From assembly GCA_031364845.1 (NCBI GenBank), contig JANLWX010000033.1, forward strand, positions 1-63,355: DNA of 63,355 bases. The letters run 5' to 3'. Source of the DNA: Candidatus Eiseniibacteriota bacterium. GTDB taxonomy: Bacteria; Eisenbacteria; RBG-16-71-46. The translations under genes were made by a program, and so were the position numbers. The notes beneath the pieces were generated by a model. That model ran no database searches, was not told the origin of the DNA, and was given only the letters and a program-made list of their open reading frames with translations. Positions 231-63,317 of the stretch are shown piece after piece. Each line of letters begins with the position of its first letter. Within the stretch, counting starts at the first letter, position 1.

Positions 231-563
231 CTATGCGATGGGCTTTCTAAAGGCTCGCAACCTGAGCCCTGAGAGCCCGAGCCACCCAGCCAGGCGGCCA
301 GGTGCGATTCCGGGACCGGCTTCCGCGACGACTCTTCCTCCAAAGCGAACGCTGAGTCTGACATCCGCCGTGCCGAGGATTGCCTGGAGTGGGAGCCTGA
401 ACAGATGAGCTTGCCGCGCCTGCCGCAGCAAAGCCCACCCGACATACAAGCTCGGCACGTCACACACGACCTCTCGGCCGACTGCACGAATGCTGGCCGA
501 GAGGTCCATGACGCGTATCGAGAGCATTCCCTCGACGTCGACCGCGTGACCCTTGGAAGCCAC
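231..563 (-). CDS. Hypothetical protein, translationally coupled to the upstream small gene
   Basis: GTG at 563 overlaps the TAG of 563-769; protein-like sequence MASKGHAVDVEGMLSIRV...GRVVAEAGPG. Confidence 0.55.
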   Translation of the reverse strand: MASKGHAVDVEGMLSIRVMDLSASIRAVGREVVCDVPSLYVGWALLRQARQAHLFRLPLQAILGTADVRLSVRFGGRVVAEAGPGIAPGRLAGWLGLSGLRLRAFRKPIA

Positions 564-769
564 TACTTGGCCTGCTGGTCCCGCGTACGGATCTTGAGCG
601 TGCCGTTCATCGTCCACGGTGCGCTCGGGCCATTCGCGGAGGTCCCTCCCGGTACGATCACCTTGAAGTCGTGAAACTCGTACGTGATTTCTGCTCCGCG
701 CCCGGTCAGTTTGTCATACAGGCCGATCGCGAGGTCCGGCCACGTCTGTGTCGCTTGAGCTGTCGTCAT
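563..769 (-). CDS. Small conserved-looking hypothetical protein (TWPDLAIGLYDKLTG...)
   Basis: ATG at 769 preceded by an AGGAG RBS; 68 aa. Confidence 0.7.
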   Translation of the reverse strand: MTTAQATQTWPDLAIGLYDKLTGRGAEITYEFHDFKVIVPGGTSANGPSAPWTMNGTLKIRTRDQQAK

Positions 770-892
770 ATGATCTCCTGTGAGGTTGATGTTGTGCTGC
801 AAGCAAGTGTGCGATGCAGTGCGGGAACACTGAAACTTACAGAGCCGCTACGCGCAGAACCGGAATGGCGTGAGACCGCCGCGTCCGATCGA

Positions 893-1420
893 CTACTGGG
901 CCGAAGGCATCAATACCGTGTCGATGACATGGATGACGCCGTTCGACGCGAGGATGTCGGTCTTGATGACGTTCGAAGAGCCGTTGAGTACGACGCCGCT
1001 CGCGCTGTTGATGCCGACCTTCTGCCCATTGACTGTCGTGGCCTCGGTGAGCGTCACGACATCCTTTGCCAGCACCTTGCCCGATACGACGTGGTACAGC
1101 AGCACGCCCTTCAGCGCCTGCGGATCCTTGAGCAGTGCATCCAGCGCGCCTGCCGGCAGCTTCGCGAACGCCTCGTCGGTCGGAGCGAAAACGGTGAATG
1201 GGCCCTTGCCTTTCAGCGTCTTGGCGAGGTCCGCCGCCTTCAGAGCCGTAAGCAGGGTGTTGAACGATCCTGCCGCCTTGGCGACCTGGACGATGTCTTT
1301 GCCCGACTTGTCGACGGCAGCGGACTTGGTCTTGTTGTAGGCGCCGGCCATGCCGACGGAGGACATGATGAGCGACGCCGCGGCGACGGTTGCGATGATC
1401 CCGACGATGTTCTTGCGCAT
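893..1420 (-). CDS. Fasciclin (FAS1) domain secreted protein
   Basis: Signal peptide; FAS1 motifs [19 protein letters not shown] and [11 protein letters not shown]. Confidence 0.95.
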
Positions 1421-2012
1421 GACAGGGTGCCTCGTACGAAGGGTCTTGAGCGTGGCCCGGGGCTGCGGCCCCGGATGAGCGGGTCATTGCTTCTCACCCG
1501 CACGGCATCCGATGCGCACATTTTGAACAGGATGTGTCCAGTTATTGCAATTGTGAGGAATGAGTCGACGCGTGAGCCTTGTGAGGCGAAGGGTCATGGC
1601 CCGGCGTCCGCGACCGCCGCGCCTGGGCGCACGCTCGCCGAAAGGAGTGGACGGCACCAAACAGAGCTTCAAACCGCGCGCGGGCGCGGCCTATCGCGTC
1701 GTCGTCGTGCTCGGGTGGAAAGGTATCTCGGTTTGACTCGCACGAACCAGCGCACCTGAGTTGCGGCGCGTGCAGGGGCAACACACCCAGCACGCGCTTG
1801 CGTTTCGGGGCGTCCCGCCCACGGTGCCGCCGTGGGCGGCGGGAGATCGTCAAAGCCAAACGGAGTCTTCACGAACCAAACCTGTGGATCGTCTCATGCA
1901 AGCTTCTTTCAGATAGATGCGGTCCCGCCCTGCACAGCTTGAGGAAAACCGTGCATCGCGGGGCGCCTGCCTGATATCGTTTCACGACCACTCGATCCGT
2001 GAGGAATCCTCC

Positions 2013-2294
2013 ATGACTGACACCACCACCGTGTGCGCTCGCGATCAGCATATATGGCAGGGCCTCGGCGAGGAGAGCGTGATCCTCGACCTCGAGGCCG
2101 GGGTTTATTACGGGCTCAACGTCGTCGGCAGCTCGGTGTGGCGTCTGATTCAGACGCCGCGGACGTTCGCCGATCTGCGCGATGCGGTGATCGCGGAATA
2201 CGCGGTCGACGCCGAGCGGTGCGCTCACGACCTGCGGGCTCTGCTCTCCATTCTCGAGCAACGCGGCATGATCGACGTCGCCGAGTCCGCATGA
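2013..2294 (+). CDS. PqqD-family RiPP recognition element (lasso peptide B1)
   Basis: ESVILDL..GVYYGLNVVGSSVWRLI...EYAVD..RC..DL..LL..L..RG is the typical RRE pattern; GAGGA RBS before ATG 2013. Confidence 0.92.
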   Translation: MTDTTTVCARDQHIWQGLGEESVILDLEAGVYYGLNVVGSSVWRLIQTPRTFADLRDAVIAEYAVDAERCAHDLRALLSILEQRGMIDVAESA

Positions 2295-2782
2295 TCGATG
2301 CTTCGCGCCTGGGTCGATGGTGGGCCACCGTCGAGATCTTCGTCATCGCCGCGGTGCTGCTGATACTCGTGCGCCTCGCGATCCGTCGCACGCCACTGCC
2401 GGAGATCCGCTCCCGGATCGCGGCCCGCACTCCCCGGGGAGCCACCCGCGCGCGCCTGCCCGCGAGCGAGATCGGCCGGCTGGTCTCGGCCGTCGGACGG
2501 CGACTACCCGGGATCGGCACCTGCCTGACCCACGCGCTCGTGACCGAGGCCTTGCTGCGCCGCGAGCACCACGCCGCGCAGTTGGTTGTCGGCATCAAGC
2601 GCGGGCACGGCTCCCGCCCAAGCGCGCACGCGTGGGTTACGAGTGATGACGTTGTCGTGGTGGGGGCGGCCGCCGATCTCGGCCGGTTCACACCACTCGC
2701 GGTTGGAAGAGATTCCTCAACCCTTCGGTCGTTCGCGGCAAACAACCCGAGGAGCGACGATCGGATAGCGAACATTTCGTAA
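2291..2782 (+). CDS. Lasso peptide B2 leader peptidase (transglutaminase-like)
   Basis: ATGA overlap with B1; catalytic motifs TCLTHAL (Cys) and AHAWV (His). Confidence 0.9.
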   Translation: MIDASRLGRWWATVEIFVIAAVLLILVRLAIRRTPLPEIRSRIAARTPRGATRARLPASEIGRLVSAVGRRLPGIGTCLTHALVTEALLRREHHAAQLVVGIKRGHGSRPSAHAWVTSDDVVVVGAAADLGRFTPLAVGRDSSTLRSFAANNPRSDDRIANIS

Positions 2783-2934
2783 CGCTGCACTCACTCCAGG
2801 CACCCGACGAATTCGGCTCGTTCGCCGCCTTCATCGGGAGCCGCATCAGCGATCTTCGCGTCACCTGAGCGCGAGGACGCAAATCAACCCTCACCGTTCG
2901 TGGTGAACGGGAGTTCAGTCCGAAAGGGATCGCC

Positions 2935-3057
2935 ATGATCGAAAAAGACACTCGCAAGCCTTATGCTGCTCCGGAACTCGTCGAATTCGGGTCCGTTGCG
3001 GACCTCACGGAGCGATTGGGCAGTGGATTCTGTGATAACGAGACGGGATGTGACTAG
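2935..3057 (+). CDS. Lasso-type RiPP precursor peptide, 40 aa: MIEKDTRKPYAAPELVEFGSVADLTE-RLGSGFCDNETGCD
   Basis: Translated by hand (below the ORF-track cutoff). YxxPxL RRE-binding motif, GxVxxLT with Thr at -2, GAAAGGGA RBS, position between B2 and the kinase. Confidence 0.9.
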   Translation: MIEKDTRKPYAAPELVEFGSVADLTERLGSGFCDNETGCD

Positions 3058-3078
3058 ACACCTCTGAACTCACCTCAT

Positions 3079-3106
3079 GGCGCGCCGGAAGAACTTCCGG
3101 CGCGCC
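3079..3106 (+). terminator. Perfect GC-rich stem-loop right after the precursor gene (terminator or mRNA stabiliser)
   Basis: ggcgcgccggaag-aa-cttccggcgcgcc; no U-tract. Confidence 0.7.
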
Positions 3107-3194
3107 TATCGATTCTGAAGGTGCCAGACTGATCGACAGCACACCCCCTCTCCTCCATATCCATCGCGCGTTCGGCCTCTCGCTCGCGAGTGAT

Positions 3195-4121
3195 GTGCCA
3201 CTTGCTGGGCTGCCGCGGTCGCACGACGCAACCGCGGAAGCAGACTGTCACGTCCGATTCCGGATAACGGGCGTGTCCCACGCCCCGGCAACAATTCGCC
3301 ACGCCACCGAGTGGCTGCACCGGTCACGGCGACCGGACGGACGTGTGTGGATCGCCGTCGGGCGTCGGGTGTCGGACTATGTGATTCGCTTCCCCGGCAT
3401 GGCCGAGTTCAACATCAGCGCCGATGGTCGTGAGATTCGCGCCCGCCGAGCCCGGGGCGTGCCCATGCGCACGCTCCGGCATCTGCTGCTCGATCACGTG
3501 CTTCCGCGCGTGCTCGACCTCAGAGGCGCGCTGGTGCTCCATGCCGCTGCCATCGCAACCGACGCGGGGGCTATCGTGTTCCTCGGCAAGAGCGGTCAGG
3601 GCAAGTCGACGCTGACCGCGAGCCTGGCTCGCGGAGGCCTTGCCGTGCTCGGCGACGACGTCATTGTCCTACGAGAGATTGCCGGGGTATGGCATGCCGT
3701 GCCGAGCCACCCTGGCCTGCGCCTGTGGCCGGATTCGGCGACGCTGCTCGAGGCGAGTGCATCCACCGGCCCGGTCGCGCACCACACGAACAAGCAAGGT
3801 GGCGATGCCGCACGCATGGGAGCGTGGCGGCGCGATTCACCCGTGCCGATCGCGCGCGCCTACGTGCTGGCGCCGGCCGATGCGTCGAAGTTGCCGGCCG
3901 TCGAGCCGTTGCCGACGCGGGGCGTATTCGCCCAGATCGTCGCCCAGACCTTTCGCTTCGATCCGGGGGCGAACAGCCCCTTGCGCGATGAGCTGCGCAC
4001 GCTGACGCGGCTCGCGGCGGCGCCGTGGTTCCGCACACTCGTGGTGCCACGTGACTATGCCGCGCTGCCGGGCGTGCGCGCGTGCATCGAGCGCGATCTC
4101 TCAACCGAGAAGCCATCGTGA
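3195..4121 (+). CDS. HprK-related kinase of the type found in paeninodin-like lasso clusters
   Basis: LHAAAI, Walker A GKSGQGKST, GDDV. The frame is open upstream (AFGLSLASDVPL), so the true start may be CTG at 3129. Confidence 0.88.
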   Translation: MPLAGLPRSHDATAEADCHVRFRITGVSHAPATIRHATEWLHRSRRPDGRVWIAVGRRVSDYVIRFPGMAEFNISADGREIRARRARGVPMRTLRHLLLDHVLPRVLDLRGALVLHAAAIATDAGAIVFLGKSGQGKSTLTASLARGGLAVLGDDVIVLREIAGVWHAVPSHPGLRLWPDSATLLEASASTGPVAHHTNKQGGDAARMGAWRRDSPVPIARAYVLAPADASKLPAVEPLPTRGVFAQIVAQTFRFDPGANSPLRDELRTLTRLAAAPWFRTLVVPRDYAALPGVRACIERDLSTEKPS

Positions 4122-5347
4122 GCTCGCGATTGCCGGCCCCGCCGGGCCACGAGATCGCTGCCTCGCCCGAGTTGCGCGTGTTGCTCGACATCGCGCGCAC
4201 GCGCGTGTCGTCCGAGCGTTCGCGGCGGATCCGTGCCGCGCTCGACGGGCCGTTAGACGCCGCCGCGCTCGTGACGCTCGCCGAGCGTCATGGCCTCGTG
4301 CCTCTGCTCCACCACCATCTCGGTGTCCCGGGTGCGCTGCCCGTCCCGGAGCGGCAACGCTTGGTCAGCCTCGCCCGCAACAGCGCCATGGTCAATCTGG
4401 CGCTGGTTGCCGAGTTGCACCGACTGCTCGACGATCTCGACGCGTCGGCGATCCCGGTGGTGCCGTACAAAGGCCCGGCGCTCGCGGCATCGCTCTATGG
4501 CAACTTCACACTACGGGAGTTCCGGGATCTAGACCTGCTCGTGCGCCCCAGTGACGTGCCGCGAATCCAGGAGTTGCTCATGCGCCGCGGCTATCTCAGC
4601 GAAGGCACGCCAGCGGGACTGCCGCTCAGCCTTGTGCTGCGCGAGGCATGCGAGATCCAGTTCTGCCGCCGGCGCGGGCGCGCCGTGGTCGAGGTCCACT
4701 GGGCGCTGATGCCGGGTTATCTGATGTCTGGAATGGATGAGGGAGTATGGGAGCGCCTCGTGCCGAGTGTTCTCGGGCATCGCCAGGTGCGCGCCCTCTC
4801 GACCGAAGATCTCCTCGTGTTCCTGTGCGCTCACGGCGCAAAACACGGGTGGGAACGGATCAGCTGGCTCACGGATGTGGCGGAGTGTGTCTCCTCCGCG
4901 GCGGCGCTCGACTGGGACGCCGTCATGATGCGCGCGAGAGAGACGCGCGCACGGCGCGCCCTCGGACTCGGTCTCTTGCTCGCGCGTGATCTGCTCGATG
5001 CCCCCGTGCCGGGCGACGTTCTGGACAGGCCGGATCTCTCGGCTCGCGACCCATCGCTCCGCGCGCTCGCCAATTCGGTGCTCGCGCGTTGGGATGCCGG
5101 CCAGCCTCTTCGCGCGAGGGACACCGTCCGCTTCCACCTCGCCACCCGTGATGGCGCCGGCGATCGCGTCCGCTATCTCGCGCTGCGCGCCGTGAACCTC
5201 AATGAACACGATTGGGGACTCATGGCACTGCCGCCAGCCCTCGCGGGGCTCTACTACCCGCTGCGTCTCGTGCGGCTCGCCGCGGAGGGGATTGCGCGCC
5301 TGCGGGCAGCGGGCCGCCATGTTGCGCGGGTCGCGGCGATCAAGTAG
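4118..5347 (+). CDS. Nucleotidyltransferase family protein (NTP_transf_5-like)
   Basis: GTGA overlap with the kinase; YKGPALA...R..RDLDLLV, VEVHW, HGAKHGW..ISWLTDV. Confidence 0.9.
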   Translation: MSSRLPAPPGHEIAASPELRVLLDIARTRVSSERSRRIRAALDGPLDAAALVTLAERHGLVPLLHHHLGVPGALPVPERQRLVSLARNSAMVNLALVAELHRLLDDLDASAIPVVPYKGPALAASLYGNFTLREFRDLDLLVRPSDVPRIQELLMRRGYLSEGTPAGLPLSLVLREACEIQFCRRRGRAVVEVHWALMPGYLMSGMDEGVWERLVPSVLGHRQVRALSTEDLLVFLCAHGAKHGWERISWLTDVAECVSSAAALDWDAVMMRARETRARRALGLGLLLARDLLDAPVPGDVLDRPDLSARDPSLRALANSVLARWDAGQPLRARDTVRFHLATRDGAGDRVRYLALRAVNLNEHDWGLMALPPALAGLYYPLRLVRLAAEGIARLRAAGRHVARVAAIK

Positions 5348-5807
5348 ACGACGTTGCCGTGATGGCCTCGCAGGCTCGCCGTGTGACCTCGTGCCGAAAG
5401 GCGAACAGCCGCTCGAGTTCGCGCCGCGCGAAGGCGCCGCCGAAGACGCGACCGAGCGCCCCGAACGGAAGCTCGTACTCGATGTCGTCGGTGAGGGCGC
5501 ACTCACGGGGGCCGTGCGGCGTGACGATGTGCCTGTGCATCCAGCGCGCGAACGGCCCCCGGATCATCGTGTCGGCGAACATCCTCCCGGGCTCGTACGC
5601 AACGTGCTCGGCCTCGATGGTTTGCCAGATGGGACCGATCTTGGTGCGGAGCGCTACCCGAGTCCCCACGGCGAGTGAGGCCGGGGGGATCAGGATCTCC
5701 GTGACTTGCCACGGGGGTTGGAGGCGCGCGAAGGCGTCCTTCGCCTCGTGGAAGGAAAAGACGGTCTCCGCGCTGGCTTTGATGAAGCTCTCCTTCACGA
5801 ATCGCAT
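5340..5807 (-). CDS. SRPBCC family protein
   Basis: MRFVKESFI..S.ETVFSFHE, F.DTM.RGPF..W.H.H, D.IEYELPFG, F.FRH. Confidence 0.88.
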   Translation of the reverse strand: MRFVKESFIKASAETVFSFHEAKDAFARLQPPWQVTEILIPPASLAVGTRVALRTKIGPIWQTIEAEHVAYEPGRMFADTMIRGPFARWMHRHIVTPHGPRECALTDDIEYELPFGALGRVFGGAFARRELERLFAFRHEVTRRACEAITATSST

Positions 5808-5952
5808 GGGGCTCCATTCGGTTGCGTGGGTGCTTCCATAACGCCCAGCAGCCGGCCGGCCGCGGCAATGCCACTCCGCCGCAGGTCGAAAGCTGAGCGC
5901 CACCCCATTGCAGTTACTAGGACAGGCTCCTAGGTTTCCACTTCCGGCCATC

Positions 5953-8900
5953 TCACGCCCCGCGACTCCCGCGCAACACTTCGAGCGCCACAAGGCGTTC
6001 GATCGCCTCGAGAGTCAACTCGTCCTTGCCGAGTTCCCTCACGCGCGACCAGCCGGTCCGCAGTTCCCGCGACAGTGCATCGGGCAGCGTGCGCAGCCAC
6101 CCTTCGATCCGCAGGTCGACGAACTCCCGCTTCTCCTCGATCGTCAACTCGTGAGCGAGCAGCAGGCGCGATGCCTCCTCGGCGTCGACGAGCGTCTGCA
6201 AGATGTGCCAGCGGTTGCCGGGCGGTTCCGCGCACAGAGCGCCGAAGGTGCCGCTCGAAGTCTCGCGGATCAGTTCCTCCTCGCGCGTGGTGAGGCTCTC
6301 GTGTTCCTTGGTCTCGTCCCAGCTCTCCGAGTCCTCGGCCATGTAACGCAGGTAGAGCATGGCGAACAGACAGGTCGGTGCCACCAGTTCCTCGCGGACC
6401 CTCACGTCAACCCACAACGCGGCCGCGGCGCGCAGGCACCGCTTGGCGGTGCCTTCTGCCAGCTTGCGGCCGAAGACCAGCGCCACCGACTCCTTCACGA
6501 AGCACGGCAACTCGCTCGCGATGATCTCGCGATAGCCCGGGACGTGCCGTTCGAGGAGAATCGCCGCGCGCCGGTCGAGCGCGGCGAGATCGCTCGTCAC
6601 GCCCGGCAGCCCCAGCGTCGTGCAGCCGAGGTTGTAGACGATGGCGCGCGGAAGCGTCACGCCCTCGGGCCATGCGTCGCGCAGATCCCGAACATCCGGG
6701 AGTTCCTTGCCGCCACCCCACTCTTCTGGATACTCGGGAATCGAGCGGCCGTAGTTCACCGAGCCGGTCGCCCGGATCCGAACGCGGGTCTGAGGAACGA
6801 GACCTCCAAACGGTGCGATCAGCGGCGCGATCCGCAAGAGCGTCTCGGTGTGAATGCGCACACCGGTCTCGAGCAGCTTGAAGAGCGCGTCGCTCTCCGA
6901 GCCACCGATTGCGGGCGGCAGAGAACGGACCGCCATGGCGGAGCGATACATTTCGGCGAGGCGATCGGCCTCGGCGGGCGCGTCGGCACGGATGCCCTGC
7001 ATCGTCACGCCATCGGCGCGGCAGAATTGAGCGACGACACCGGGATGCTGCGGATCGAATCCGCCGCGGAATCCCGCGCGGCCGGCGCCGATCAGGTACG
7101 TCAGTCGCGGTGCGGGCTCGCCGATGCGCCGCGCGCGCTCGGCCAGCCGGCGTTCCGCTTCGTCGCGCTTGGCGACGGCGAGCGTGTAGGCGACGTCGGT
7201 CGCAATCTTTCCGCTCTGCTCCGCGGTGTCGGACATGGCGACGAAGATGCGAACGAGCGCGCCGGTTCCATCGAACCGCGTCGTGAAGGTCGATGGCGTT
7301 GGCAGCCCTTCGGCTACCTGGCCGCGCTCGAGTGCTTGATAGAACGCTTCGAGCAGATCCGGCAGATGTGAGAGCGCCCCGACGTTCTCGCACAGCGGAA
7401 CCAGGCGCACCCGGACCACCCGCGCCCTCAGTGCTGCTCGTTTGGCTTCGGGAATCCGGCGGCTAAGGAACGCGTCGATCCGCTCGGGCAGTCCCGCGAA
7501 TAGGTTGTCGATCGCCTCGCGGTAGAGCGTGCCGATCTTTATGACGGCACCCAGTTCGGCCCTCGAATTCACCTGGGGGACGGAGATCTCGTAGATGGCG
7601 TTCTGCTGAGGTTCGATGTCGAGCCGCTCGCAGGCCAGGAGGAACAGGAAGTTCGCCCGGGCGACCGATGCGAGGATGCGGGAGATCTTCTCCTCATCCT
7701 GCTCGATGAACGGATTGGGGACGCGGAACAGGAGGTGACGATCCTCGCCCGGAATGATTCCGTGCCGCAGCAGCGCCAGCACCACCTTCTCCGGAACATC
7801 GAGCCAGTCGGGGCTGATTTGCCTTCCTTCGAAATCGAGCAGCACTTCGTTGCAGGGCCCGAGCAGGTCGACGATCGTCTCTTCGTACTCCTCGCGCGCC
7901 TCGACCAAAGGATTCCATTCGAGATGCGTGAGCGCGCGATGCACCCGGTCCGGAGCGCCTTCAGGCACGGACTCGATCGCTCGCGCGAGCTGGACGGCAC
8001 GATGCGTGGTGGAGTCGGGGTGCTTGGTCCCGGTCAGGCGGAGTTCTTCGTGCCTCGGATTCTCGAGGAACCGGCGATGCGCTTCATGAAATGCTTCCGG
8101 GTCGAGGTCGTCGAGGGCCGGGTATTTCTCCCGGGTGCACGTGCTCGTCCACACGCTCTCCTCGATCGACGGCATGGCCGCGGCGATCGCGGCGGGCGCG
8201 CTCGATCCAAGGCGGCCCTGGAGGATGAGCCGCGTGCGGACCCGGTCCATGAAGACCGCAAGTTCCTTCACGTCCTTCGATCCGTATGACAGCCGCTGCC
8301 ACGTCCCGTAGCGCGCGGAGTCCTTGCCCGCGAACGCGACGAAAGGTATCCCCCCGACGCCGCCCGACAGGAGGAATTCGAACGTGTCGACGGAGTTTCT
8401 GACGATCGCCCGCTCGTGCACGCCGTTGCTCAGACGGTCGAACGGTTCGCCGATCAAGCCCGGGAACGCCAGCGGCGAGTAGAACGTCCCGCCGAAATCG
8501 GTGCGTTCCACGCCGAGTGGCGCAAGCTCGTCCGCCGCGCGAGCCATGAAGTCGCGGCGCTCCTGCATGTAGGGCGACGGCCGGCGCAGTGCCGCGAGCG
8601 GACTCTGAAGTGCCGCGAGCGCCCAGTCCTGCGCGAGTGTCGACGGAGTGGCGACGAGCCACGCGGAGAGGTTCCCGAGGATCTCGCGGGCCCGGATATT
8701 TCCTGTCTTGATCTGGTCGGAGATCACCATCCAGCACGCGCGCGCACCGGTCGACGCGCCGAACATGTCCATCTTGGACAAGCCGGACAGTGTCACCACC
8801 CAGTCGCGCCACTCAGGGTGCGCGAAGACCGGATTGACGAACAATCCGACGTAGTCGAGGCGCTGATAGACCGAGTCGTAGAGGACGAAGACGCGATGTG

Positions 8901-9558
8901 CGACCGCGACACGCACGAGTTCCTCGACGAGTTCCCGCGGATAGACCGCGCCGGTCGGGTTGTGGGGATTGTTGATGATGACGCTCGAGATGCCGCCGGA
9001 GGCGAGGATGCGTTCCAGTTCCTGCGGAGAGGGAAGGAACTCGGGAGAGGACGTCGGCAGTTCGACGACCCGCTTGCCGGCCCGCTCGATGAACCAGTCG
9101 TACTCCCAACTCGGCCGCGGGACCACGACGCCGGTTCCATCCGCGCCCAGCACTTCGAGGACCATTGCCAGCCCGGAGCGCGTGCCCGGAGTGAAGATGA
9201 CCTCGTCCGGCAGGAACCGCACATCGCTCGCGGGATAGTCGATCAGGCCATCCCGGTTGAAGAAGCCCGCCACCTCGCTGCGGACATCCATGCGCCCCGT
9301 GGCGGGGCCGTAGCTGTGCACGGTGTTGCGGGTGATCCGCTGCGCGGCCCGCACGACCTCGGGGTGCGGAGCGAAGTCCGCGTTCTTGTAATCGCCCTGA
9401 GTAAGGTCGAGAGCCCCTTCCTGCTGCACCCTGCGGGCGAACAGGCGGACCAGCGGCTCGGGAGTGGCCAGGGCCGTGAGCGAGATAGGCCCGACGACGG
9501 GGTCCGTCGATGCAGGGGCCGGATCTGAAGTCAGCGGACTGATGGACTTGCTCTTCAT
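5953..9558 (-). CDS. ppcA: Fusion of a PLP-dependent aminotransferase class I/II with an archaeal-type phosphoenolpyruvate carboxylase
   Basis: N-half: YGPATG, NNPHNPTG, DSVY, SGLSK (PLP Lys), G.R, RLSY. C-half follows the PpcA motif order TKHPD, DFEG, FRVPNP, IYE, PLCE, RIFVAMSD, G.G..GFRG, YGRS, LPRAI. Confidence 0.85.
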   Translation of the reverse strand: MKSKSISPLTSDPAPASTDPVVGPISLTALATPEPLVRLFARRVQQEGALDLTQGDYKNADFAPHPEVVRAAQRITRNTVHSYGPATGRMDVRSEVAGFFNRDGLIDYPASDVRFLPDEVIFTPGTRSGLAMVLEVLGADGTGVVVPRPSWEYDWFIERAGKRVVELPTSSPEFLPSPQELERILASGGISSVIINNPHNPTGAVYPRELVEELVRVAVAHRVFVLYDSVYQRLDYVGLFVNPVFAHPEWRDWVVTLSGLSKMDMFGASTGARACWMVISDQIKTGNIRAREILGNLSAWLVATPSTLAQDWALAALQSPLAALRRPSPYMQERRDFMARAADELAPLGVERTDFGGTFYSPLAFPGLIGEPFDRLSNGVHERAIVRNSVDTFEFLLSGGVGGIPFVAFAGKDSARYGTWQRLSYGSKDVKELAVFMDRVRTRLILQGRLGSSAPAAIAAAMPSIEESVWTSTCTREKYPALDDLDPEAFHEAHRRFLENPRHEELRLTGTKHPDSTTHRAVQLARAIESVPEGAPDRVHRALTHLEWNPLVEAREEYEETIVDLLGPCNEVLLDFEGRQISPDWLDVPEKVVLALLRHGIIPGEDRHLLFRVPNPFIEQDEEKISRILASVARANFLFLLACERLDIEPQQNAIYEISVPQVNSRAELGAVIKIGTLYREAIDNLFAGLPERIDAFLSRRIPEAKRAALRARVVRVRLVPLCENVGALSHLPDLLEAFYQALERGQVAEGLPTPSTFTTRFDGTGALVRIFVAMSDTAEQSGKIATDVAYTLAVAKRDEAERRLAERARRIGEPAPRLTYLIGAGRAGFRGGFDPQHPGVVAQFCRADGVTMQGIRADAPAEADRLAEMYRSAMAVRSLPPAIGGSESDALFKLLETGVRIHTETLLRIAPLIAPFGGLVPQTRVRIRATGSVNYGRSIPEYPEEWGGGKELPDVRDLRDAWPEGVTLPRAIVYNLGCTTLGLPGVTSDLAALDRRAAILLERHVPGYREIIASELPCFVKESVALVFGRKLAEGTAKRCLRAAAALWVDVRVREELVAPTCLFAMLYLRYMAEDSESWDETKEHESLTTREEELIRETSSGTFGALCAEPPGNRWHILQTLVDAEEASRLLLAHELTIEEKREFVDLRIEGWLRTLPDALSRELRTGWSRVRELGKDELTLEAIERLVALEVLRGSRGA

Positions 9559-12281: not shown

Positions 12282-12728
12282 GTGCACACACTCGCGCTCA
12301 CGATCCTGGTCATGGTCACGCTTGCCGCTCCCGCAACTCCGGTCGCCAAAGATGGCGTTGCGCTCACGGCGTTTCTGAACGAGTTCCTCGCAGGGGCGTC
12401 ACGCAACGATGCCGCCATGCACGATCGCTTCTGGGCCGACGATCTGATCTATACCGGGTCGTCGGGACGCCGGATCGGCAAGGACGAACTCATGAAAGAC
12501 GTCCGCTCCGCGCCGGCACCCGCGCCCAGCGATCCCAAGGTCGTCTACACCGCCGAGGACATTCGCATTCAGCAATACGGGGACGCGGCATTGGTGGCAT
12601 TTCGACTCGTCGCCACCACAACCGCGGCGGAATCCACGAGCGTGGCCCGCTATCTCAACAGCGGCATGTTCCTCAAGCGCGGCGGACGCTGGAAGGTGGT
12701 GGGCTGGCAGGCGACGAAGATGCCGTGA
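12282..12728 (+). CDS. NTF2-like / DUF4440 secreted protein
   Basis: Signal peptide; FWADDLIYTGSSG, IRIQQYGD.A.V.F, KRGGRWKVV.WQAT; GGAGG RBS. Confidence 0.88.
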   Translation: MHTLALTILVMVTLAAPATPVAKDGVALTAFLNEFLAGASRNDAAMHDRFWADDLIYTGSSGRRIGKDELMKDVRSAPAPAPSDPKVVYTAEDIRIQQYGDAALVAFRLVATTTAAESTSVARYLNSGMFLKRGGRWKVVGWQATKMP

Positions 12729-12763
12729 GCCAAGCCCATCGCGTCGATCCGTTCGAATTACGA

Positions 12764-12797
12764 GTGGCGCGGCACCAGCGATTCGGCGCCGCGCCAC
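12764..12797. terminator. Stem-loop between the convergent DUF4440 and DUF1579 genes (also at ~27755-27787)
   Basis: gtggcgcggcacc...ggcgccgcgccac in both duplicate copies. Confidence 0.65.
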
Positions 12798-12819
12798 GGT
12801 CACTGCAAGAGTTTCGCGG

Positions 12820-13317
12820 TTACTTCTTGCGCGAGTACTCCATCGTCATCCTCTTCATTTCCTTCTTGCCACCCGGCGGAACGCCATACATTTCGAACGT
12901 GTGGTGGTCGTCGTCGATGATGGTCGTCACCGTGCGCGCCTTGGCGGGCTTGCCCGTAATCGGATCGGACATCGTTCCGTTCCATGTGATCACGTTTCCG
13001 CCGGCGTTCGCGGTGCCTTCGATTTTCATGATTCCGATTCCCATGTTGTCGATCCACGTTGAGACGTACTTGCCGACCACGTTGTCGTAGCCGTAGAGAC
13101 CGATACCCGTGAACGGCATGCCCATCATCTCTCCGGTCGATACTTCCTGAACGTAGCGGCCATCCAGCAGACTCGTGACCGTCGCCGTGGTCTTCGCCTC
13201 CTGCCATGGCTGCGAGGGGTCCATCAGGAACTTGGCCGAGCACTCCCAGTCGCCGACCCACTTCTTCATCGCATCGTGCTGCGGACCGGGCGTGGCGGCC
13301 TTCGCCATCTTCTCCAT
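12820..13317 (-). pseudogene. DUF1579 family protein, 5'-truncated copy lacking the signal peptide
   Basis: Near-identical to 27808-28404 but missing its first ~33 codons, which are replaced by an unrelated relic. Confidence 0.75.
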
Positions 13318-13321
13318 CAGC

Positions 13322-16638: not shown

Positions 16639-19600
16639 ATGACTCTGAGGCAAGTTTTTTGCTTTGCGCGGGCATGCGCGATCATCGTCGTTCTTCTCCA
16701 GCTTTACACATACGGCACAGCGCGAGGCGCGCCTTCAGCCAATTCCGGCAAGCCCAGGTTCGTTCGCGTCGGCGAAACGATCCGTATGCAGATGCCGCAA
16801 GCCGCCCTGGTGAACAAATGCATCCCCTTCGAACTCCTCGCCGAAGCCACGGACACGGTTACGATCGATGCCCGCGCGCTGGACTTCGACGTTGCGCTCG
16901 AGGTGTCGCGTCGCGGGGTAAACGGCGAGCTCGAGATCCTCGCCAAGGACGACAACAGCGGCACAGCGAGCAACAGTCGGATCACCGTGGGCCTCGTTGC
17001 CAGCGTGCCCTATCGCATCGTCGTGCGCTGCAAGGACGAGGATCTCACCGGCGAGTTCGAACTGCAGTTGACGGCGGGGAGGATCGAGCCGCTCGACTTC
17101 AAGGGGGAGCAGCAGGCCGAAATGGGCTACTGGAAAGCAATCGAGGACCGGGCGCGGGAGAATGGCGATCGGGTCCGCGAGGCGATTGGTCTGAACGGTC
17201 GCGCTACAATTCTACAGGCCCGTGGTGAGTACAATGAAGCGAGACCTCTCTTCGAACGGTGCGTGACGTTGATAGAAGAGGCCTTCGGTCCGGAAGACCA
17301 AAACCTCGCCACGAATCTGAACAACCTTGCCCTGCTTCTGCAGGTCATGGGCTCTTACGGAGAAGCGAAGCCGCTATACGAGCGGGCTCTGGCGATTTGG
17401 GAAAAGCAGCGAGGTCCCCAGGACCTCGATGTGGCTACGGCCATGAACAACCTCGGCATCATTCACCTCCTCCTTGGGTCCTACGCGGAGGCAAAATCGT
17501 TCTACGAGCGCTCGCTGGCCATCCGCGAAGAGAAGTTGGGTCCCGAGGATCCGCTGGTCGCGAACAGCCTCGGTAATCTAGCGGGATTGCTACAAACGGA
17601 AGGCGATTTCATGGCAGCCAAGCCCTTGTTCGAGCGCTCCCTGGCGATCCGCGAGAAACAGCTTGGCCCCGAGCATCCCCTGGTCGCCAATGGGCTCTCC
17701 AACCTGGGAGCGTTGTTTCTGGCACTCGGCGCCTATGCCGACGGCAAGGCGGCCATGGAGCGTGCCCTGGTCATTCGTGAGAAACAGCTCGGCACGCAAC
17801 ATCCGCTATTTGCAAAGACTCTCAACAATGTCGGGAGCACACTCGCGAAGATGGGAGACTACGCCGGCTCGAAGCGAGTTCTCGAGCGTTCGCTGGCGAT
17901 CTCCGAGAAACAACTCGGTCCGGACAACCCGGACGTGATTCAAACCCGCGCCGACCTCGCCGATCTGGCACTCGCCATGGGATCGCATGCAGAGGCTGAG
18001 TCGCTCCAGCTTCAATGTCTTGCGTTACGAGAGAAAAAATTTGGTCCGGAGCATCCTCACGTCGCCGCAAGCCTCACCAGCCTAGCCGTAATCTACCGGG
18101 TGCAGGGCGCCTACGCGAAGGCGAAGCGGCTCTGCGAGCGGGCGCTGGCGTATCACGAGAAACTCCTCGGGCCGGATCATCCCGAGGTAGCGAAGGATCT
18201 GAATGCCTTGGCTCGGATAGAGGCACTCATGGGTGAACGTGAGGAGGCGCTAAAGGATGCGCTCCGCGCCGAACAGCTCGGCAGAAACCATCTTCGCCTG
18301 ACGGCTCGCGTTCTCCCGGAACGGCAGGCGCTTCGCTACGCAACCGTTCGAGCCCAGGGCTTGGACCTCGCGCTCTCTATCGCGGTGAAGAGTGGCGCCG
18401 GTGACCCGAAGGTCGCGCGTGAGACCTGGGAGTCGCTGATCCGTTCGCGCGCCCTTGTTCTCGACGAGATGGCCGCACGGCACAAGGCACTCGCTCTAGC
18501 GAACGATCCCGAGATCGAAGCCCTGGAGCGGAAGCTCACTGCCACCAGCGCGCGTTATGCGAATCTGCTCGTTCGTGGACCCGGGCGAGATCCGATCGAG
18601 CGCTATCGTGGACTCCTCGACGACGCGTGGCATGAGAAGGAGCAGACTGAGCAGGTCCTCGCGGGGATGAGTTCTGCGTTCCGTCCTGACGCTGGCGGCG
18701 AGACGGGCGGTTTCGACGAGATCGCCCGCGATCTACCGCCGAAGGGCGCCCTCGTGGCCTTCGCCCTCTACAACCGATACAAGGTTGCCGACTCGCGCAC
18801 GATCACGTCCGCTGCGGACTCCGCAGCAGCGACGGACACGACGGGTGCGTCTCGAATCGTGCCGTCGTATCTGGCGTTCGTCTTGCACGGCGAGAAGTCA
18901 GAGCCGGTCGTCGTGCCACTGGGCCCTGCCGAAGAGATCGACCGCCTCGTGTCGGTATGGCAGCGCGAGGCCGCCACCGGCAGTCAGGTTTCATGGCGCT
19001 CGGCGGCAGCGACCGAGGAGTCGTATCGTCGGGCAGGCGCTCGGCTGAGGGCACGGGTCTGGGATCCGCTCGCTTCGCACATCGGTCGTGCCCGGAGAAT
19101 CTTCGTAATTCCGGATGGAGCCATAAATCTCGTAAGCCTGGTGGCGCTGCCGGTCGGAAAATCGGCCTATCTCATCGAGAAGTCTCCCCTGATCCATTAC
19201 CTATCCGCCGAGCGGGACCTCACGGGATCGAAGGCGGAGCGCACCCGCGGAACCGGCCTTCTTGCGTTGGGTGGGCCGGCGTTCGACGACACGAGCTTCG
19301 CGACGCCGAATCCGGCGGATCGCCTCCCCGAGCCGGCCATTGCCAGCCTCGCTAAAGCTTCCGGCCCTGCCGTCGCTCCGGCGCTCCCCTTCCGCGGAGA
19401 GAGATCGGATTGCAGCGATTTCGCCGCCGTTCAGTTCGAGGCCCTGCCGGGGTCGCTCCGCGAGGTCGGGGAGATCACGGTGCTGTGGAACTCCGCAGCG
19501 GCGGCGAAAAGCGATGGGATGACCAATGGAACGGGCGCCACCGGCGCTACTGAGTGGACTGGGGACGCCGCCAACGAAGCGGCATTCAAACGAGGTGCGC

Positions 19601-20196
19601 CCGGCCGGCGTGTGCTGCATCTCGCCACGCACGGTTTCTTCCTCGGCGGGGCGTGCAGGTCGGCGCTGGAAACCTCACGCGGAGTCGCAACGCCAATTCC
19701 AAACGCGGAGACAGCGCCACGTCCGCTCGAAGCGACGTCGCCTCCTCCGATGGCGGGTGAGAACCCGCTACACCTCTCGGGTCTCGCCTTTGCGGGCGCG
19801 AATCTCCGCAGCGTAGTCCGCGGTGATGAAGACGACGGAATCCTGACTGCCGAGGAGATTGCTTCGCTCGATCTCTCCGGCGTCGAATGGGCGGTGCTGT
19901 CGGCCTGCGAAACGGGAGTCGGTGACGTCCGCGCGGGCGAAGGTATGTTCGGCCTGCGGCGCGCGTTCCAGGTCGCTGGCGTAGGAGCGTTGATCACCAG
20001 CCTGTGGTCGGTAGAGGACGAATCGACACGCGCCTGGATGAGGTCGCTCTACGAGGGCCGTCTCGAGAACCATCTCGACACGGCCGAGGCCGCACGGCGC
20101 GCCGGCCTGGAGGTGCTTCGGGACCACCGAGCGCGGAAGCAGTCCACGCACCCCTTCTATTGGGGCGCATTCGTCGCGGCCGGCGACTGGCGGTGA
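16639..20196 (+). CDS. TPR-repeat CHAT (caspase-like) domain protein
   Basis: About 8 kinesin-light-chain-like 42-aa TPRs (ERSLAIREK.LGPEHP.VA..L.NL); CHAT motifs IPDG, LHLATHG, VLSACETG, SLWSV.D, HPFYWGAF. Confidence 0.95.
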   Translation: MTLRQVFCFARACAIIVVLLQLYTYGTARGAPSANSGKPRFVRVGETIRMQMPQAALVNKCIPFELLAEATDTVTIDARALDFDVALEVSRRGVNGELEILAKDDNSGTASNSRITVGLVASVPYRIVVRCKDEDLTGEFELQLTAGRIEPLDFKGEQQAEMGYWKAIEDRARENGDRVREAIGLNGRATILQARGEYNEARPLFERCVTLIEEAFGPEDQNLATNLNNLALLLQVMGSYGEAKPLYERALAIWEKQRGPQDLDVATAMNNLGIIHLLLGSYAEAKSFYERSLAIREEKLGPEDPLVANSLGNLAGLLQTEGDFMAAKPLFERSLAIREKQLGPEHPLVANGLSNLGALFLALGAYADGKAAMERALVIREKQLGTQHPLFAKTLNNVGSTLAKMGDYAGSKRVLERSLAISEKQLGPDNPDVIQTRADLADLALAMGSHAEAESLQLQCLALREKKFGPEHPHVAASLTSLAVIYRVQGAYAKAKRLCERALAYHEKLLGPDHPEVAKDLNALARIEALMGEREEALKDALRAEQLGRNHLRLTARVLPERQALRYATVRAQGLDLALSIAVKSGAGDPKVARETWESLIRSRALVLDEMAARHKALALANDPEIEALERKLTATSARYANLLVRGPGRDPIERYRGLLDDAWHEKEQTEQVLAGMSSAFRPDAGGETGGFDEIARDLPPKGALVAFALYNRYKVADSRTITSAADSAAATDTTGASRIVPSYLAFVLHGEKSEPVVVPLGPAEEIDRLVSVWQREAATGSQVSWRSAAATEESYRRAGARLRARVWDPLASHIGRARRIFVIPDGAINLVSLVALPVGKSAYLIEKSPLIHYLSAERDLTGSKAERTRGTGLLALGGPAFDDTSFATPNPADRLPEPAIASLAKASGPAVAPALPFRGERSDCSDFAAVQFEALPGSLREVGEITVLWNSAAAAKSDGMTNGTGATGATEWTGDAANEAAFKRGAPGRRVLHLATHGFFLGGACRSALETSRGVATPIPNAETAPRPLEATSPPPMAGENPLHLSGLAFAGANLRSVVRGDEDDGILTAEEIASLDLSGVEWAVLSACETGVGDVRAGEGMFGLRRAFQVAGVGALITSLWSVEDESTRAWMRSLYEGRLENHLDTAEAARRAGLEVLRDHRARKQSTHPFYWGAFVAAGDWR

Positions 20197-20381
20197 AGGG
20201 GCTCGGTCCACAACCGGACCCTTACTTTCATCCTTGCCAGCCCCGTGCGCCGGGGCGGTCGAGCCGTCGGACACGACAACCCGCGCTTCGAGCCCGCGAG
20301 CTCCGCGGCAATCGGATCCCAAACGCGCGCACGCCGCGCAGCGCCGGCGCGGCGGTACATCGGCGATGCCGGATTCTAAGT

Positions 20382-20426
20382 TGGTGCGTCGCCTTGGAAT
20401 CGAACCAAGAACCTGCTGATTAAGAG
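20382..20426 (-). tRNA. 3' half of tRNA-Lys(CTT), att-site remnant 1 (not a full tRNA)
   Basis: Minus strand CTCTTAATCAGCAGGTTCTTGGTTCGATTCCAAGGCGACGCACCA: anticodon loop, T-arm, CCA; no D-arm upstream. Confidence 0.9.
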
Positions 20427-27620: not shown

Positions 27621-27662
27621 CCTCACGCCAGTTGCTTCAGCCCACGAAACTCCGAAGACCCC
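27621..27662. repeat. Dispersed ~42-bp repeat, copy B
   Basis: Matches 156-197; lies just before the truncated DUF4440 relic. Confidence 0.7.
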
Positions 27663-27668
27663 AGCGTG

Positions 27669-27731
27669 ATGTTCGTGAAACGGGGTGGACGCTGGAAGGC
27701 GGTGGGCTGGCAGGCCACGGAGATGCCGTGA
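27669..27731 (+). pseudogene. 3' remnant of a DUF4440 gene
   Basis: MFVKRGGRWKAVGWQATEMP* vs MFLKRGGRWKVVGWQATKMP* at 12666-12728. Confidence 0.85.
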
Positions 27732-27807
27732 ACGACGCGGTCGTCTGAACGCAAGTGGCGCGGCACCGGGATCAGGCGCCGCGCCACGGTTCAGTGTGAG
27801 TTCGCGA

Positions 27808-32331: not shown

Positions 32332-32503
32332 CCTCGTCAGAGTCCGAGGCACGGGCGCGAGGATCGCGGTCGTGGTGAAGCCGCGGAGACGAGTCGCCTG
32401 AATCGCCGATGCGCCGGGAGACTTCGTGCGCGCTGACGGGGCTCTCTTCCGCGTTCGCAGGACATCGGCGAACACGGCGGTAGCCTGTCGAATGCGCGAG
32501 GTT

Positions 32504-32548
32504 TGGTGCGCCGCCTTGGAATCGAACCAAGAACCTACTGATTAAGAG
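32504..32548 (-). tRNA. 3' half of tRNA-Lys(CTT), att-site remnant 2
   Basis: Minus strand CTCTTAATCAGTAGGTTCTTGGTTCGATTCCAAGGCGGCGCACCA; two substitutions relative to 20382-20426. Confidence 0.9.
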
Positions 32549-36290: not shown

Positions 36291-36407
36291 TAATCGCGAT
36301 CCCGACCAGCAAGGACGTGGAAGCCGGAAACGACTAATCCGGTTGAGCTCGAACGATCGATCGGCCGCGGAGACGCGTCGCGAAACTAATCCGTTCGGAG
36401 AATCCAG

Positions 36408-41771: not shown

Positions 41772-41921
41772 GTCTGGCTCCTGGTTGAGCGCTCTTCTGT
41801 CAACTCGTCCATTGCGATCGATCAACGCTGAGATTATCCTGCTGTCGCAGTCAGGCGACAATCCACTTTGTACAATCTGGCAGAGTTGTGCAACGCGTAC
41901 GTGTATTAAGATGGAGGTCGC

Positions 41922-56241: not shown

Positions 56242-56261
56242 TCGGAGTCGGAAGGAACCAC

Positions 56262-61687: not shown

Positions 61688-62248
61688 CTAAAGGGCGAAC
61701 ATTCTGAAAACGGAGACGAGCAGGAGCGCAATCCAGAAGACTCCACTTCCAGCATAGAGCAAATCAAGTCCCAGACTGTGGCTTATGAAGCGGGACATTC
61801 TCACAGACATGGGTGTTTGTGACCAGCCCAGCCGTGGTCTGTCAGGCTCTCGCCGCCTTGGGAGGTCGTCACTAATCGGCGTTGTCGGAGGAGGGAGCTT
61901 GTACTGCCGGCTGAAGAGGCCGGCATACCAGTCCCTGCCGGTGAGTCCCCAATGACGATGCTCGATCTCGATGGCACGATGAGCAATATTCTCGAACAAC
62001 GCCCGGCTGCGCAGTTCCAGAATCCACAAACAGAGCGTCAGCCACAACGCAAACACGGAACCGCTCGCTCGAGCGGGCCAAGCGGTGTCTCGGCCAAGAA
62101 CGGCGCCAGCTAGAAAGCCAATCGCGGCAACGTAGAGTCCTGCAATCGTGAAGCGGCTATTTACGAGCTGGCCATGATATTCATGGACGGCAGCGTATTC
62201 TGTCCGGAGGTTCTCGGGATCAGGGTGGGAGAGGGGATCATCGTTCAT
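61688..62248 (-). CDS. Hypothetical membrane protein (about 3 TM helices)
   Basis: ATGA overlap with the integrase stop; hydrophobic segments; EY...R...RA.EIE pattern. Confidence 0.7.
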   Translation of the reverse strand: MNDDPLSHPDPENLRTEYAAVHEYHGQLVNSRFTIAGLYVAAIGFLAGAVLGRDTAWPARASGSVFALWLTLCLWILELRSRALFENIAHRAIEIEHRHWGLTGRDWYAGLFSRQYKLPPPTTPISDDLPRRREPDRPRLGWSQTPMSVRMSRFISHSLGLDLLYAGSGVFWIALLLVSVFRMFAL

Positions 62249-63195
62249 GTGCGTTGCCTTTCTGGAGGTCCACACACAGGTCGAAGGTCATCCACGATAC
62301 CCTTTCGGCCATTGAGTGGATGTTTCGCGATCTGCGATCGCAAATGCACGGGACTTGCCGCCAGGTAGCCGGTCGTGGTCGTGATGCGATCGTGTCCCAT
62401 CATCTGGGAAAGAGCAAAAATCTCACAGCCACCCTCGATCATCAGCGTCGCAAATGTGTGCCGAAGTGCGTGGAGGCGGAAAGCGATGCCGCTTGCGACC
62501 CGCAGTGACCGGACCAAATGCCTCAGGCCCTCATCGGTCAGACCGGCATCGGAGGTGGACGAAGGAAAGGCTGCAAGGCACCACTTCCCCGCCCTGCCGC
62601 GTTCTTTCAAGTAGCGTCGCATGATGTCAGCGTAGGTTGCGCTCAGCGGGACTATCCGATCTTTTGCGCCCTTACCGTGACGGACAAGGAGTGCGCGTTG
62701 CTCGAAATCGAGATCCGCCACTTCCAAGTGAAGAAGTTCCTTGCGGCGCAGGCCGGCCCAAATCACAGTCGCGAGGAGCGCGTGATTTCGGTACCGCTCG
62801 AATTCCGTTCGCCACCGGTAGTTCAAGACCTTCTCGAGAAGCAGCCGAGCCTGATCTTCCGGTAGGCGCCTCGGAAGAGTCTTCTCCAGGCGCGGCAGGG
62901 CGACTCCAGCAGCTGGATTCTCGGTGAGGTGGCCGCCATCCACGCACCAACGAAAGAAGACGCTCAGTGATTTGTGGTACGTCAGGTACGTCTGCGTGGA
63001 CCAGTGCCGCTCGGCGCGGCCATGGTAAAAGAAGGAACGCACGACTGCAGTCGTGCAGTCTTCGAGGCGATCTACACTTGTTGCACGTTGAAAGAGCGTC
63101 GCGACCACGCGATAGCGATTGATCGTCGCGGGAGAGTAACCACGCAAGTAGTGTGCTTCGTCGCACATCTGCTGGCAGAGAGCATTGATATTCAT
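62245..63195 (-). CDS. Tyrosine recombinase/integrase (XerC/D-like architecture)
   Basis: GLRRKEL (R), GKGAKDR (K), HALRHTFAT (HxxR), MMGH, Y nucleophile in TTTGY. Confidence 0.95.
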   Translation of the reverse strand: MNINALCQQMCDEAHYLRGYSPATINRYRVVATLFQRATSVDRLEDCTTAVVRSFFYHGRAERHWSTQTYLTYHKSLSVFFRWCVDGGHLTENPAAGVALPRLEKTLPRRLPEDQARLLLEKVLNYRWRTEFERYRNHALLATVIWAGLRRKELLHLEVADLDFEQRALLVRHGKGAKDRIVPLSATYADIMRRYLKERGRAGKWCLAAFPSSTSDAGLTDEGLRHLVRSLRVASGIAFRLHALRHTFATLMIEGGCEIFALSQMMGHDRITTTTGYLAASPVHLRSQIAKHPLNGRKGIVDDLRPVCGPPERQRT

Positions 63196-63317
63196 ATACT
63201 TATGCTGTACATTACCCACTGCGCCATCAGTCGGAACGCCCTGTTCCGGTGCGGATGTGGTCGAATCATGTCGTCACGACCGGTCGCTTTGGGCCAACCT
63301 TAGCCAGAAATCACCAT

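Follow-up and report, generated by a model that had tools for sequence, protein, structure and literature searches.

The archaeal-type phosphoenolpyruvate (PEP) carboxylases (PEPCs), named PepcA or PpcA, are covered by the models PF14010 and TIGR02751 and have a solved representative in Clostridium perfringens PepcA (3ODM). In the accessible passages of PMC8100219 they are described as stand-alone subunits of 55–60 kDa, the carboxylation as essentially irreversible, and the Clostridium enzyme as inhibited by aspartate in competition with PEP. We analysed a contig of 63,355 nucleotides from a Candidatus Eiseniibacteriota bacterium (JANLWX010000033.1 of assembly GCA_031364845.1; the whole stretch is called the window) in which a PEPC of this kind is joined, in one gene, to an aminotransferase dependent on pyridoxal phosphate (PLP). 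The PEPC half resembles PepcA/PpcA in its fold from end to end and in its core catalytic and C-terminal motif residues. It differs in its length (a domain of ~700 amino acids (aa) inside a 1201-aa protein, as against ~500–550 aa in the 55–60 kDa stand-alone subunit), in its helical insertions, in its 20–26% identity to the stand-alone members aligned, in carrying M775, K784, R827 and a terminal Ala, in the attached aminotransferase and in scoring below the TIGR02751 cut-off. Both halves come from known families; the branch to which the PEPC half belongs is long and so far uncharacterised, and its active site is altered. The original prediction, made from the sequence alone, knew of no described fusion of this kind, and our full-text searches, with the subscription literature mostly outside their reach, likewise found no publication on one; the accessible passages of two papers about PEPC families are silent on it.

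The gene and its parts are placed in the window as follows, with residue numbers of the fusion protein.

5953..9558, minus strand: fusion gene, N-terminal PLP aminotransferase and C-terminal long archaeal-type PEPC, 1201 aa
8215..9471, minus strand: fold-type I aminotransferase domain, aa 30–448
9178–9180, minus strand: codon of Arg127 (Lys101 in the Thermus aspartate aminotransferase)
8773–8775, minus strand: codon of the PLP lysine, K262
8059..8223, minus strand: linker, aa 446–500
5956..8058, minus strand: archaeal-type PEPC domain, aa 501–1201
8020–8022, minus strand: codon of H513
7234–7236, minus strand: codon of M775
7078–7080, minus strand: codon of R827
7066–7068, minus strand: codon of R831
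6025..6414, minus strand: helical insertions without counterpart in standard archaeal-type PEPCs, aa 1049–1178
5956..5973, minus strand: C-terminal RGSRGA, the PEPC C-terminal R..G motif with one extra Ala

The fusion is probably a one-gene module that makes aspartate from PEP, bicarbonate and glutamate; the catalytic activities, the aspartate product and the glutamate donor are those that we infer for its two halves. In a first step, suggested by the fold and residues of the C-terminal half, PEP and bicarbonate would be converted irreversibly to oxaloacetate and phosphate. In a second, oxaloacetate and glutamate would yield aspartate and 2-oxoglutarate, and glutamate synthase or dehydrogenase would restore the glutamate. 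The irreversible carboxylation would pull the reversible transamination towards aspartate, so that ammonium and CO2 would enter aspartate through a single gene, supplying new C4 skeletons to nitrogen assimilation. Use in the reverse direction, from aspartate to PEP, was rejected because PEPC is essentially irreversible in the account given in the accessible part of PMC8100219.

That both domains are present and joined is evident from the Pfam scan proposed with the original prediction. A single open frame of 1201 codons with no internal stops matches PF00155 over aa 50–345 (E 6e-30, 105.1 bits against a cut-off of 19.7) and PF14010 over aa 550–1023 (E 1.2e-29, 103.6 bits against 25), both far above cut-off, which bears out the predicted union of an aminotransferase with an archaeal-type PEPC; at E 0.1 the protein has no match to PF00311, the bacterial and plant PEPC family. 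Among 8000 scored candidates 426 match the fusion, and the 120 listed (query included) all carry both domains, the other 119 being 76–86% identical to the fusion. Genome and metagenome scans contributed 152 loci, namely the best 72 of 157 matching stretches in GTDB and the best 80 of 209 in metagenomes: 101 are whole in one alignment block, 7 are whole and frameshifted, and 44 run into the end of their contig; a split form or a lone half occurs in none of the 152. An assembly chimera or chance fusion is ruled out by these relatives. None of the longer fused forms (2103–5000 aa) scored, which is weak evidence, and a promoter and terminator scan of the gene gave chance level only. No RNA run was listed as containing the gene, an outcome that has no bearing on its expression. 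Family members bear only automatic names in protein databases.

The PEPC half retains what a carboxylase of this type has in common with its relatives. The six catalytic motifs named in the original prediction were all located, as H513 (TKHPD), R612 (FRVPNP), E724 (PLCE), D777 (MSD), R831 (GFRGG) and R971 (LPRAI), which we take to correspond to H138, R396, E506, D543, R587 and R713 of E. coli Ppc, and they are invariant in all 121 full-length family members as well as in the 14 aligned archaeal-type PEPCs that stand alone (14 of 14). The sequence was also aligned with 3ODM and with part of the maize enzyme. Altogether 17 core positions are invariant across the same 121 and 14 proteins:

Invariant core positions (PEPC domain, minus strand): H513, D515, D575, E577, R612, E724, S776, D777, R831, Q854, R857, R925, R927, R938, R971, R1196, G1200

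An AlphaFold2 (AF2) model of aa 497–1201, built from a 57-row alignment, has a predicted local distance difference test (pLDDT) score of 91 and a predicted template modelling score (pTM) of 0.91; it is not independent of the stand-alone PEPCs, because 14 of them sit in that alignment. Its top Foldseek match is C. perfringens PepcA 3ODM (E 3.6e-21), and VIA-align superposes the two with Z 32.2 and a root-mean-square deviation of 2.6 Å over 495 residues. Plant and E. coli PEPCs reach Z 15–19 in the same comparison; 1JQN and 1JQO (Z 16–19) have a barrel and C-terminal register like those of the fusion, a different size, and the PF00311 profile that the fusion does not match. The absence of a PEPcase_2 score or of a PEPC-like barrel, either of which the original prediction had named as telling against it, was thus not what we found: PF14010 is matched and a 3ODM-like fold is modelled. 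One structural detail has to be revised. Model residues 7–705 superpose on 3ODM residues 1–537, and since model residue 705 is residue 1201, the last of the protein, the extra ~150 aa form internal insertions and not the helical tail that had been placed after the PEPC. These insertions lie at aa 520–550, 685–705, 750–764, 806–815 and, mainly, 1049–1178.

The C-terminal Gly-Ala is present in 121 of 121 full-length members, with Gly1200 aligned to the terminal Gly of stand-alone PEPCs. For the plant enzyme, the part of PMC6521631 available describes a pairing of the terminal carboxylate with the catalytic Arg, and the attachment of the aminotransferase at the N-terminus would be explained by a need to keep the PEPC C-terminal carboxylate free. 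Among 1.84 billion representatives (119 matches in all), the fusion family appears as one full-length match and fragments; next come the unfused long PEPCs P0161, P0164 and P0227 (905–1037 aa), and then the standard PEPCs. A quick tree joins the fusion to P0161 and P0164 (support 89) and sets it apart from the standard enzymes (99). P0161 and P0164 have TKHPD, an insert after it and a PQ motif in common with the fusion, to which the unfused long PEPCs are 28–32% identical; they lack the aminotransferase domain, and P0161 and P0164, unlike the fusion, have Arg at position 775 and end in G. The two long PEPCs that were scored lie, as the fusion does, below the TIGR02751 cut-off. P0161, P0164 and P0227, the last named as Ca. 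Micrarchaeota, appear to be an unstudied branch of long archaeal-type PEPCs.

The aminotransferase half also keeps its core residues. Its best solved match is the Thermus aspartate aminotransferase 1BJW of subgroup Ib (E 1.8e-25), and K262, D228, Y231, N200, W151, Y83, R273 and R422 are all invariant in the 121 full-length members. The PLP lysine and the Asp/Tyr/Asn/Trp/Arg set are common to the subgroup Ib aspartate and prephenate aminotransferases (Thermus 1BJW, Arabidopsis 5WMH, Rhizobium 6F77 and 6F35), from which the fusion differs by a 3-residue insertion after the PLP lysine, by other indels, by an Arg in place of Lys101 and by an identity of 19–25% in structural alignments. Both halves are under purifying selection. 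In 14 chosen pairs, three of which include the window copy and have synonymous divergence (dS) near saturation, the ratio of non-synonymous to synonymous substitution (dN/dS) is 0.02–0.11 for the aminotransferase, 0.06–0.20 for the PEPC core, 0.03–0.35 for the C-terminal part and 0.12–0.62 for the linker.

Gene order adds to the case for glutamate as donor at a small number of loci. In one Vicinamibacteria locus (L064), gltB (485–5095) and gltD (5098–6576) are followed by the fusion start at 6579, with 2 bases between the gltD stop and the fusion start. In a Thermoanaerobaculia locus (L030) the order is LysR, gltB, amtB, glnK, fusion, and the glnK stop and fusion start abut; L029 has amtB-glnK-fusion, also abutting, and L014 has LysR, amtB, glnK and fusion. 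The gltB genes of L064 and L030 are only 45% identical and the two sets of operon-linked fusion copies do not form one clade (approximately unbiased test, p-AU 5e-11), so we count two separate placements after glutamate-synthase genes; by a rough, post-hoc estimate, a pair of cases like these would arise by chance in 49 neighbourhood groups with a probability of 0.002. The synthesis of aspartate from PEP, bicarbonate and glutamate gains support because two unrelated copies directly follow glutamate-synthase operons.

A number of observations weigh against the aspartate module, and they are given here together with the alternatives that they favour. Both halves are divergent, since neither reaches the cut-off of a functionally specific model: the fusion scores 96.1 with TIGR02751, the archaeal-type PEPC equivalog (curated cut-off 146.05), and no NCBIfam aminotransferase equivalog passes its own (best 106–109 bits against 415). 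Lys101 of subgroup Ib aspartate aminotransferases binds the distal carboxylate, and at this subgroup Ib position the fusion has Arg127 instead of Lys, a conservative change. A repurposed pair acting on another substrate, as also considered in the original prediction, was kept as an alternative because the active sites carry family-specific changes. It is distinctly unlikely that a true carboxylase is here tied, more loosely, to an aminotransferase that prefers another substrate pair, involving for example prephenate, aromatic or basic amino acids, or some donor besides glutamate. Such a preference would fit the lack of any equivalog above cut-off (the top scores are GntC at 106 and alanine aminotransferase at 100), the prephenate aminotransferases among the top structural matches of the N-terminal half, the Arg at the subgroup Ib Lys site and an N-terminal segment that reads PEP[LF]VR with an invariant Glu34. 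It sits less well with residue 127 being basic in 121 of 121 members at the position aligned to Thermus K101, with glutamate-synthase operons, which fit a glutamate donor, and with an unfused family that shares its indels.

This unfused family, which we call GGARP, has automatic names of aspartate aminotransferase, the basis on which that function is assigned. It has ~28–30% profile identity to the fusion, and in common with it an Arg where Thermus has Lys101, three inserted residues following GD, the loss of one residue following PSW, and the motifs D-x-VY, ASTG-R, PF-AF and W-RLS-G. It seldom occurs in the same genome as one Lys-type subfamily: GGARP occurs in 23 of 61 genomes and the subfamily in 13 of 61, with an overlap of 1 where 4.9 is expected (p 0.01 overall and 0.13 within the family, with kin that are not independent). 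These 61-genome tallies count an unpublished genome (G038) as one row, and no claim depends on it alone. A GGARP member on another host contig (G000:C95; L085:1447-2769) represents a large family without a close solved structure; the four relatives of this protein that are named at NCBI suggest that the host is probably Ca. Eisenbacteria. A GGARP origin of the N-terminal half is not favoured by the profile-profile scores (160–180 for GGARP as against 170–269 for the Lys-type groups, with unequal profile depth); a quick tree does place GGARP as its sister (support 90), a join that rests on long branches. Elsewhere, an ESM Atlas search with the N-terminal half returned only generic PF00155 clusters, the host genome has 13 PF00155 matches, and none of the 7 unfused class I candidates of that genome examined, the C95 protein among them, has the GAKQ/GGKP motif.

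The PEPC active site is also altered. M775, directly before the Ser-Asp motif, is present in 121 of 121 members where 13 of 14 stand-alone enzymes have Arg or Lys; R827 lies in the glycine loop in 120 of 121 members, with Arg there in 0 of 14 stand-alone enzymes; and K784 and the extra terminal Ala are further family-specific features. The aspartate inhibition of Clostridium PepcA, competitive with PEP in the available account (PMC8100219), means that the aspartate formed would hold back the carboxylation, unless the family has escaped such inhibition; that the site changes relieve it is our guess. PEP hydrolysis to pyruvate is a side reaction of PEPCs, and a remodelled site that hydrolysed PEP in place of carboxylating it would let the aminotransferase make alanine. 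We regard this as very improbable. The lost Arg or Lys before the Ser-Asp motif, the new glycine-loop Arg and the extended C-terminus could all be taken that way, as could the presence of alanine aminotransferase among the best NCBIfam and PDB matches and the many carriers that own another PEPC; the PEPC half nevertheless keeps R925, R927 and R938 (RxR...YxR), common to all stand-alone enzymes aligned, and the basic residue 127 fits a dicarboxylic substrate.

The metabolic setting of the carriers was surveyed in 50 genomes, comprising 47 of the 72 GTDB loci and three members of the host's family (two ppc-negative rows are one genome). Bacterial ppc is present in 27 of the 50 and missing from 23, and gltB in 32, while in 18, the host genome among them, it was not found; both counts tell against the aspartate module. 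Of 49 carriers, 3 have a pyruvate carboxylase/oxaloacetate decarboxylase domain, and each of these also has ppc. The host genome (97% complete) has no bacterial ppc above cut-off and no match to a pyruvate carboxylase domain, ATP-dependent PEP carboxykinase (PEPCK) or malic enzyme; it has a GTP-PEPCK, an isocitrate lyase and one Glu/Leu/Phe/Val dehydrogenase. Taken alone, the host's gap and the 23 carriers without ppc might suggest a general anaplerotic PEPC with an incidental passenger domain, a view that we hold to be extremely improbable: 27 carriers retain ppc, relatives without the fusion mostly lack it too, and the supposed passenger is the more constrained half. Simple replacement of ppc by the fusion was rejected on the first two of these grounds; 57 of 60 relatives of the host have no bacterial ppc above cut-off and 3 have one. 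The bifunctional anaplerotic enzyme of the original prediction therefore stands in part. Its bifunctional side is supported by a fold and core residues that are intact, by purifying selection acting on each half and by the two glutamate-synthase operons, whereas an anaplerotic main role is poorly supported, because oxaloacetate would leave as aspartate and because of these same ppc counts in carriers and relatives.

Most loci have unrelated neighbours, and a nitrogen operon adjoins the fusion in only 4 of 117 loci with more than 1.5 kb upstream. A test set of 18 additional carrier regions, 4 of which duplicate loci already counted, has none, so that such an operon is not supported as a general rule. 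A conserved gene cluster or biosynthetic operon was rejected, as no neighbour is common across lineages among the 152 loci. Blocks of NfnAB-like and 2-oxoacid oxidoreductase genes, of kdsD/kdsC-nrdR-lon and of TonB receptors are each confined to groups of close relatives. In one group of 13–15 loci (L033, L036, L126, L129, L135 and related) the fusion stands in a divergent arrangement with genes for NfnAB/GltD-like proteins and 2-oxoacid:ferredoxin oxidoreductase, and in a convergent one with a gene for a MOFRL glycerate kinase; at L043, LysR, isocitrate dehydrogenase and amine oxidase genes precede it.

The linker between the two domains is the least constrained region. Over aa 446–505 the mean identity is 52% and 2 of 60 positions are invariant, aa 458–479 (~22 residues) are absent from three members, and dN/dS is the highest of all regions of the fusion. 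The full-length AF2 model (pTM 0.70) has a poorly modelled N-terminal half and no readable domain geometry. Docking of aa 33–445 on aa 462–1048, with partner pLDDT of at least 88, scored 0.37 against 0.00 for the best control, with runs of 0.40, 0.01 and 0.37 and 0% contact agreement; this is weak support: 116 of 157 solved pairs attain the mark, as do 2 of 215 mismatched ones, and the passes at 0.60 or below comprise just 18 solved pairs and both mismatched ones. With a variable linker and weak docking, the support for channelling is weak, and a flexible tether between the domains is more probable than a rigid tunnel. The accessible part of a review (PMC5976638) describes genetic fusion alone as not channelling and clusters of the fusion as doing so; clusters of that kind could arise where PEPC tetramers are linked to aminotransferase dimers. 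On balance we find true channelling of oxaloacetate by the fusion doubtful. Unlikely as a whole is the fullest version of the aspartate module, a natural 'aspartate synthase' that channels oxaloacetate, has a rebuilt, product-tolerant site (M775, K784, R827, Ala), is gated by nitrogen and travels between phyla as a one-gene cassette for CO2 and ammonium.

The unequal constraint on the halves raises another use of the aminotransferase domain. In the family alignment 48% of its positions are invariant as against 27% in the PEPC half, and it lies on a very long branch. Such a domain might serve as a PLP-bound nitrogen sensor (of glutamate/2-oxoglutarate or aspartate) that switches the carboxylase, by analogy with the PTA domain of MaeB; a non-catalytic PTA domain in malic enzymes, described in the accessible passages of PMC8100219, is a precedent at this metabolic node. 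The proximity of a GlnK gene in three loci and the other aminotransferases already held by the host could be accommodated as well. Since every checked PLP and substrate-carboxylate residue is invariant, and the variable linker speaks against tight allosteric contact, we consider a sensor quite improbable and keep to the aspartate module.

The family is spread widely and patchily. The 72 GTDB loci, all from metagenome-assembled genomes, fall in Acidobacteriota, Gammaproteobacteria, Myxococcota, Chloroflexota, Ca. Eisenbacteria and Bradymonadales. Of 36 other genomes in the host's family 3 have the gene, and in one Acidobacteriota class 23 of 301 genomes do; it was not found in the lone same-genus genome (93% complete). 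A single clade of the four copies in the host's family is rejected (p-AU 2.8e-5, on 29 of 57 rows), and the window copy clusters with copies from Acidobacteriota (support 100). The pattern is most simply explained by repeated horizontal transfer, with the reservation that bins can carry foreign contigs.

The surroundings in the window are compatible with such mobility. The immediate neighbours are unrelated to the fusion (a membrane protein without assignment and a DUF4331 protein upstream, an SRPBCC protein downstream), and the following features were located.

20376..20426: 51-bp copy (96%) of the tRNA-Lys(CTT) 3' end, a likely attachment-site relic bounding the island segment with the fusion
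32503..32548: 46-bp exact copy of the tRNA-Lys(CTT) 3' end, a second likely attachment-site relic
62248..63273, minus strand: tyrosine integrase (PF00589) at the far end of the island region
G000:C34 43622–43697: tRNA-Lys(CTT)

In the same-genus genome, the core sequence preceding the window sits 2.4 kb from an intact tRNA-Lys, and most of the window is absent at the corresponding site. The arrangement is consistent with islands stacked at tRNA-Lys that carry the fusion as cargo; a join of the contig to the intact tRNA is putative.

A second, partial fusion copy lies on contig C203, which is joined to the window start via assembly overlaps. It comprises the 3' quarter (aa 910–1201), is 94.5% identical to the window copy with dN/dS 0.10, and stands beside a Vsr endonuclease and an unannotated open reading frame (G000:C203, L204; 4011–4904, 1561–2079 and 2096–2878). 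Both ends of C203 overlap the last ~700 bp of C126, as a repeat or strain variant would.

The window holds several further genes of note. Genes for PqqD, a transglutaminase-like protein, an HprK-related kinase and a nucleotidyltransferase (1917–5347, plus strand) make up a cassette like those of lasso peptides or other ribosomally synthesised and post-translationally modified peptides, which is also found in the same-genus genome; no precursor was identified. A TPR and CHAT (caspase-like) protein of 1185 aa (16639–20196, plus strand) ends just before the first tRNA-Lys repeat, and a DUF1579 gene region is duplicated with 86% identity (12659–13319 and 27662–28307). The island region also encodes a protein joining DUF4062 to DnaA ATPase and DnaA C-terminal domains (33485–35491, plus strand). 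Elsewhere are a pYEATS-domain protein (36390–37535, plus strand), a Tle1-like phospholipase domain protein (40671–41975, minus strand) and an SMODS/DncV-like nucleotidyltransferase with a patatin (56211–58724, plus strand), a defence pair resembling cyclic-oligonucleotide-based antiphage signalling systems. Also present are a DprA-like gene (50721–51449), DUF4917 with an AAA ATPase (53254–55654) and an Mrr endonuclease (60538–61392).

If the aspartate module is real, the fusion would be a natural example of aspartate formation from PEP, bicarbonate and glutamate by a single gene, and a compact part for engineering the CO2-fixing production of aspartate-family amino acids. One protein poses three questions: whether fusion channels oxaloacetate, how an archaeal-type PEPC might escape inhibition by aspartate, and what role an Arg-type aminotransferase plays. 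For the organisms that carry it, the family would represent an extra CO2-fixing step, easily missed in the genomes of uncultured bacteria of soil, sediment and sludge.

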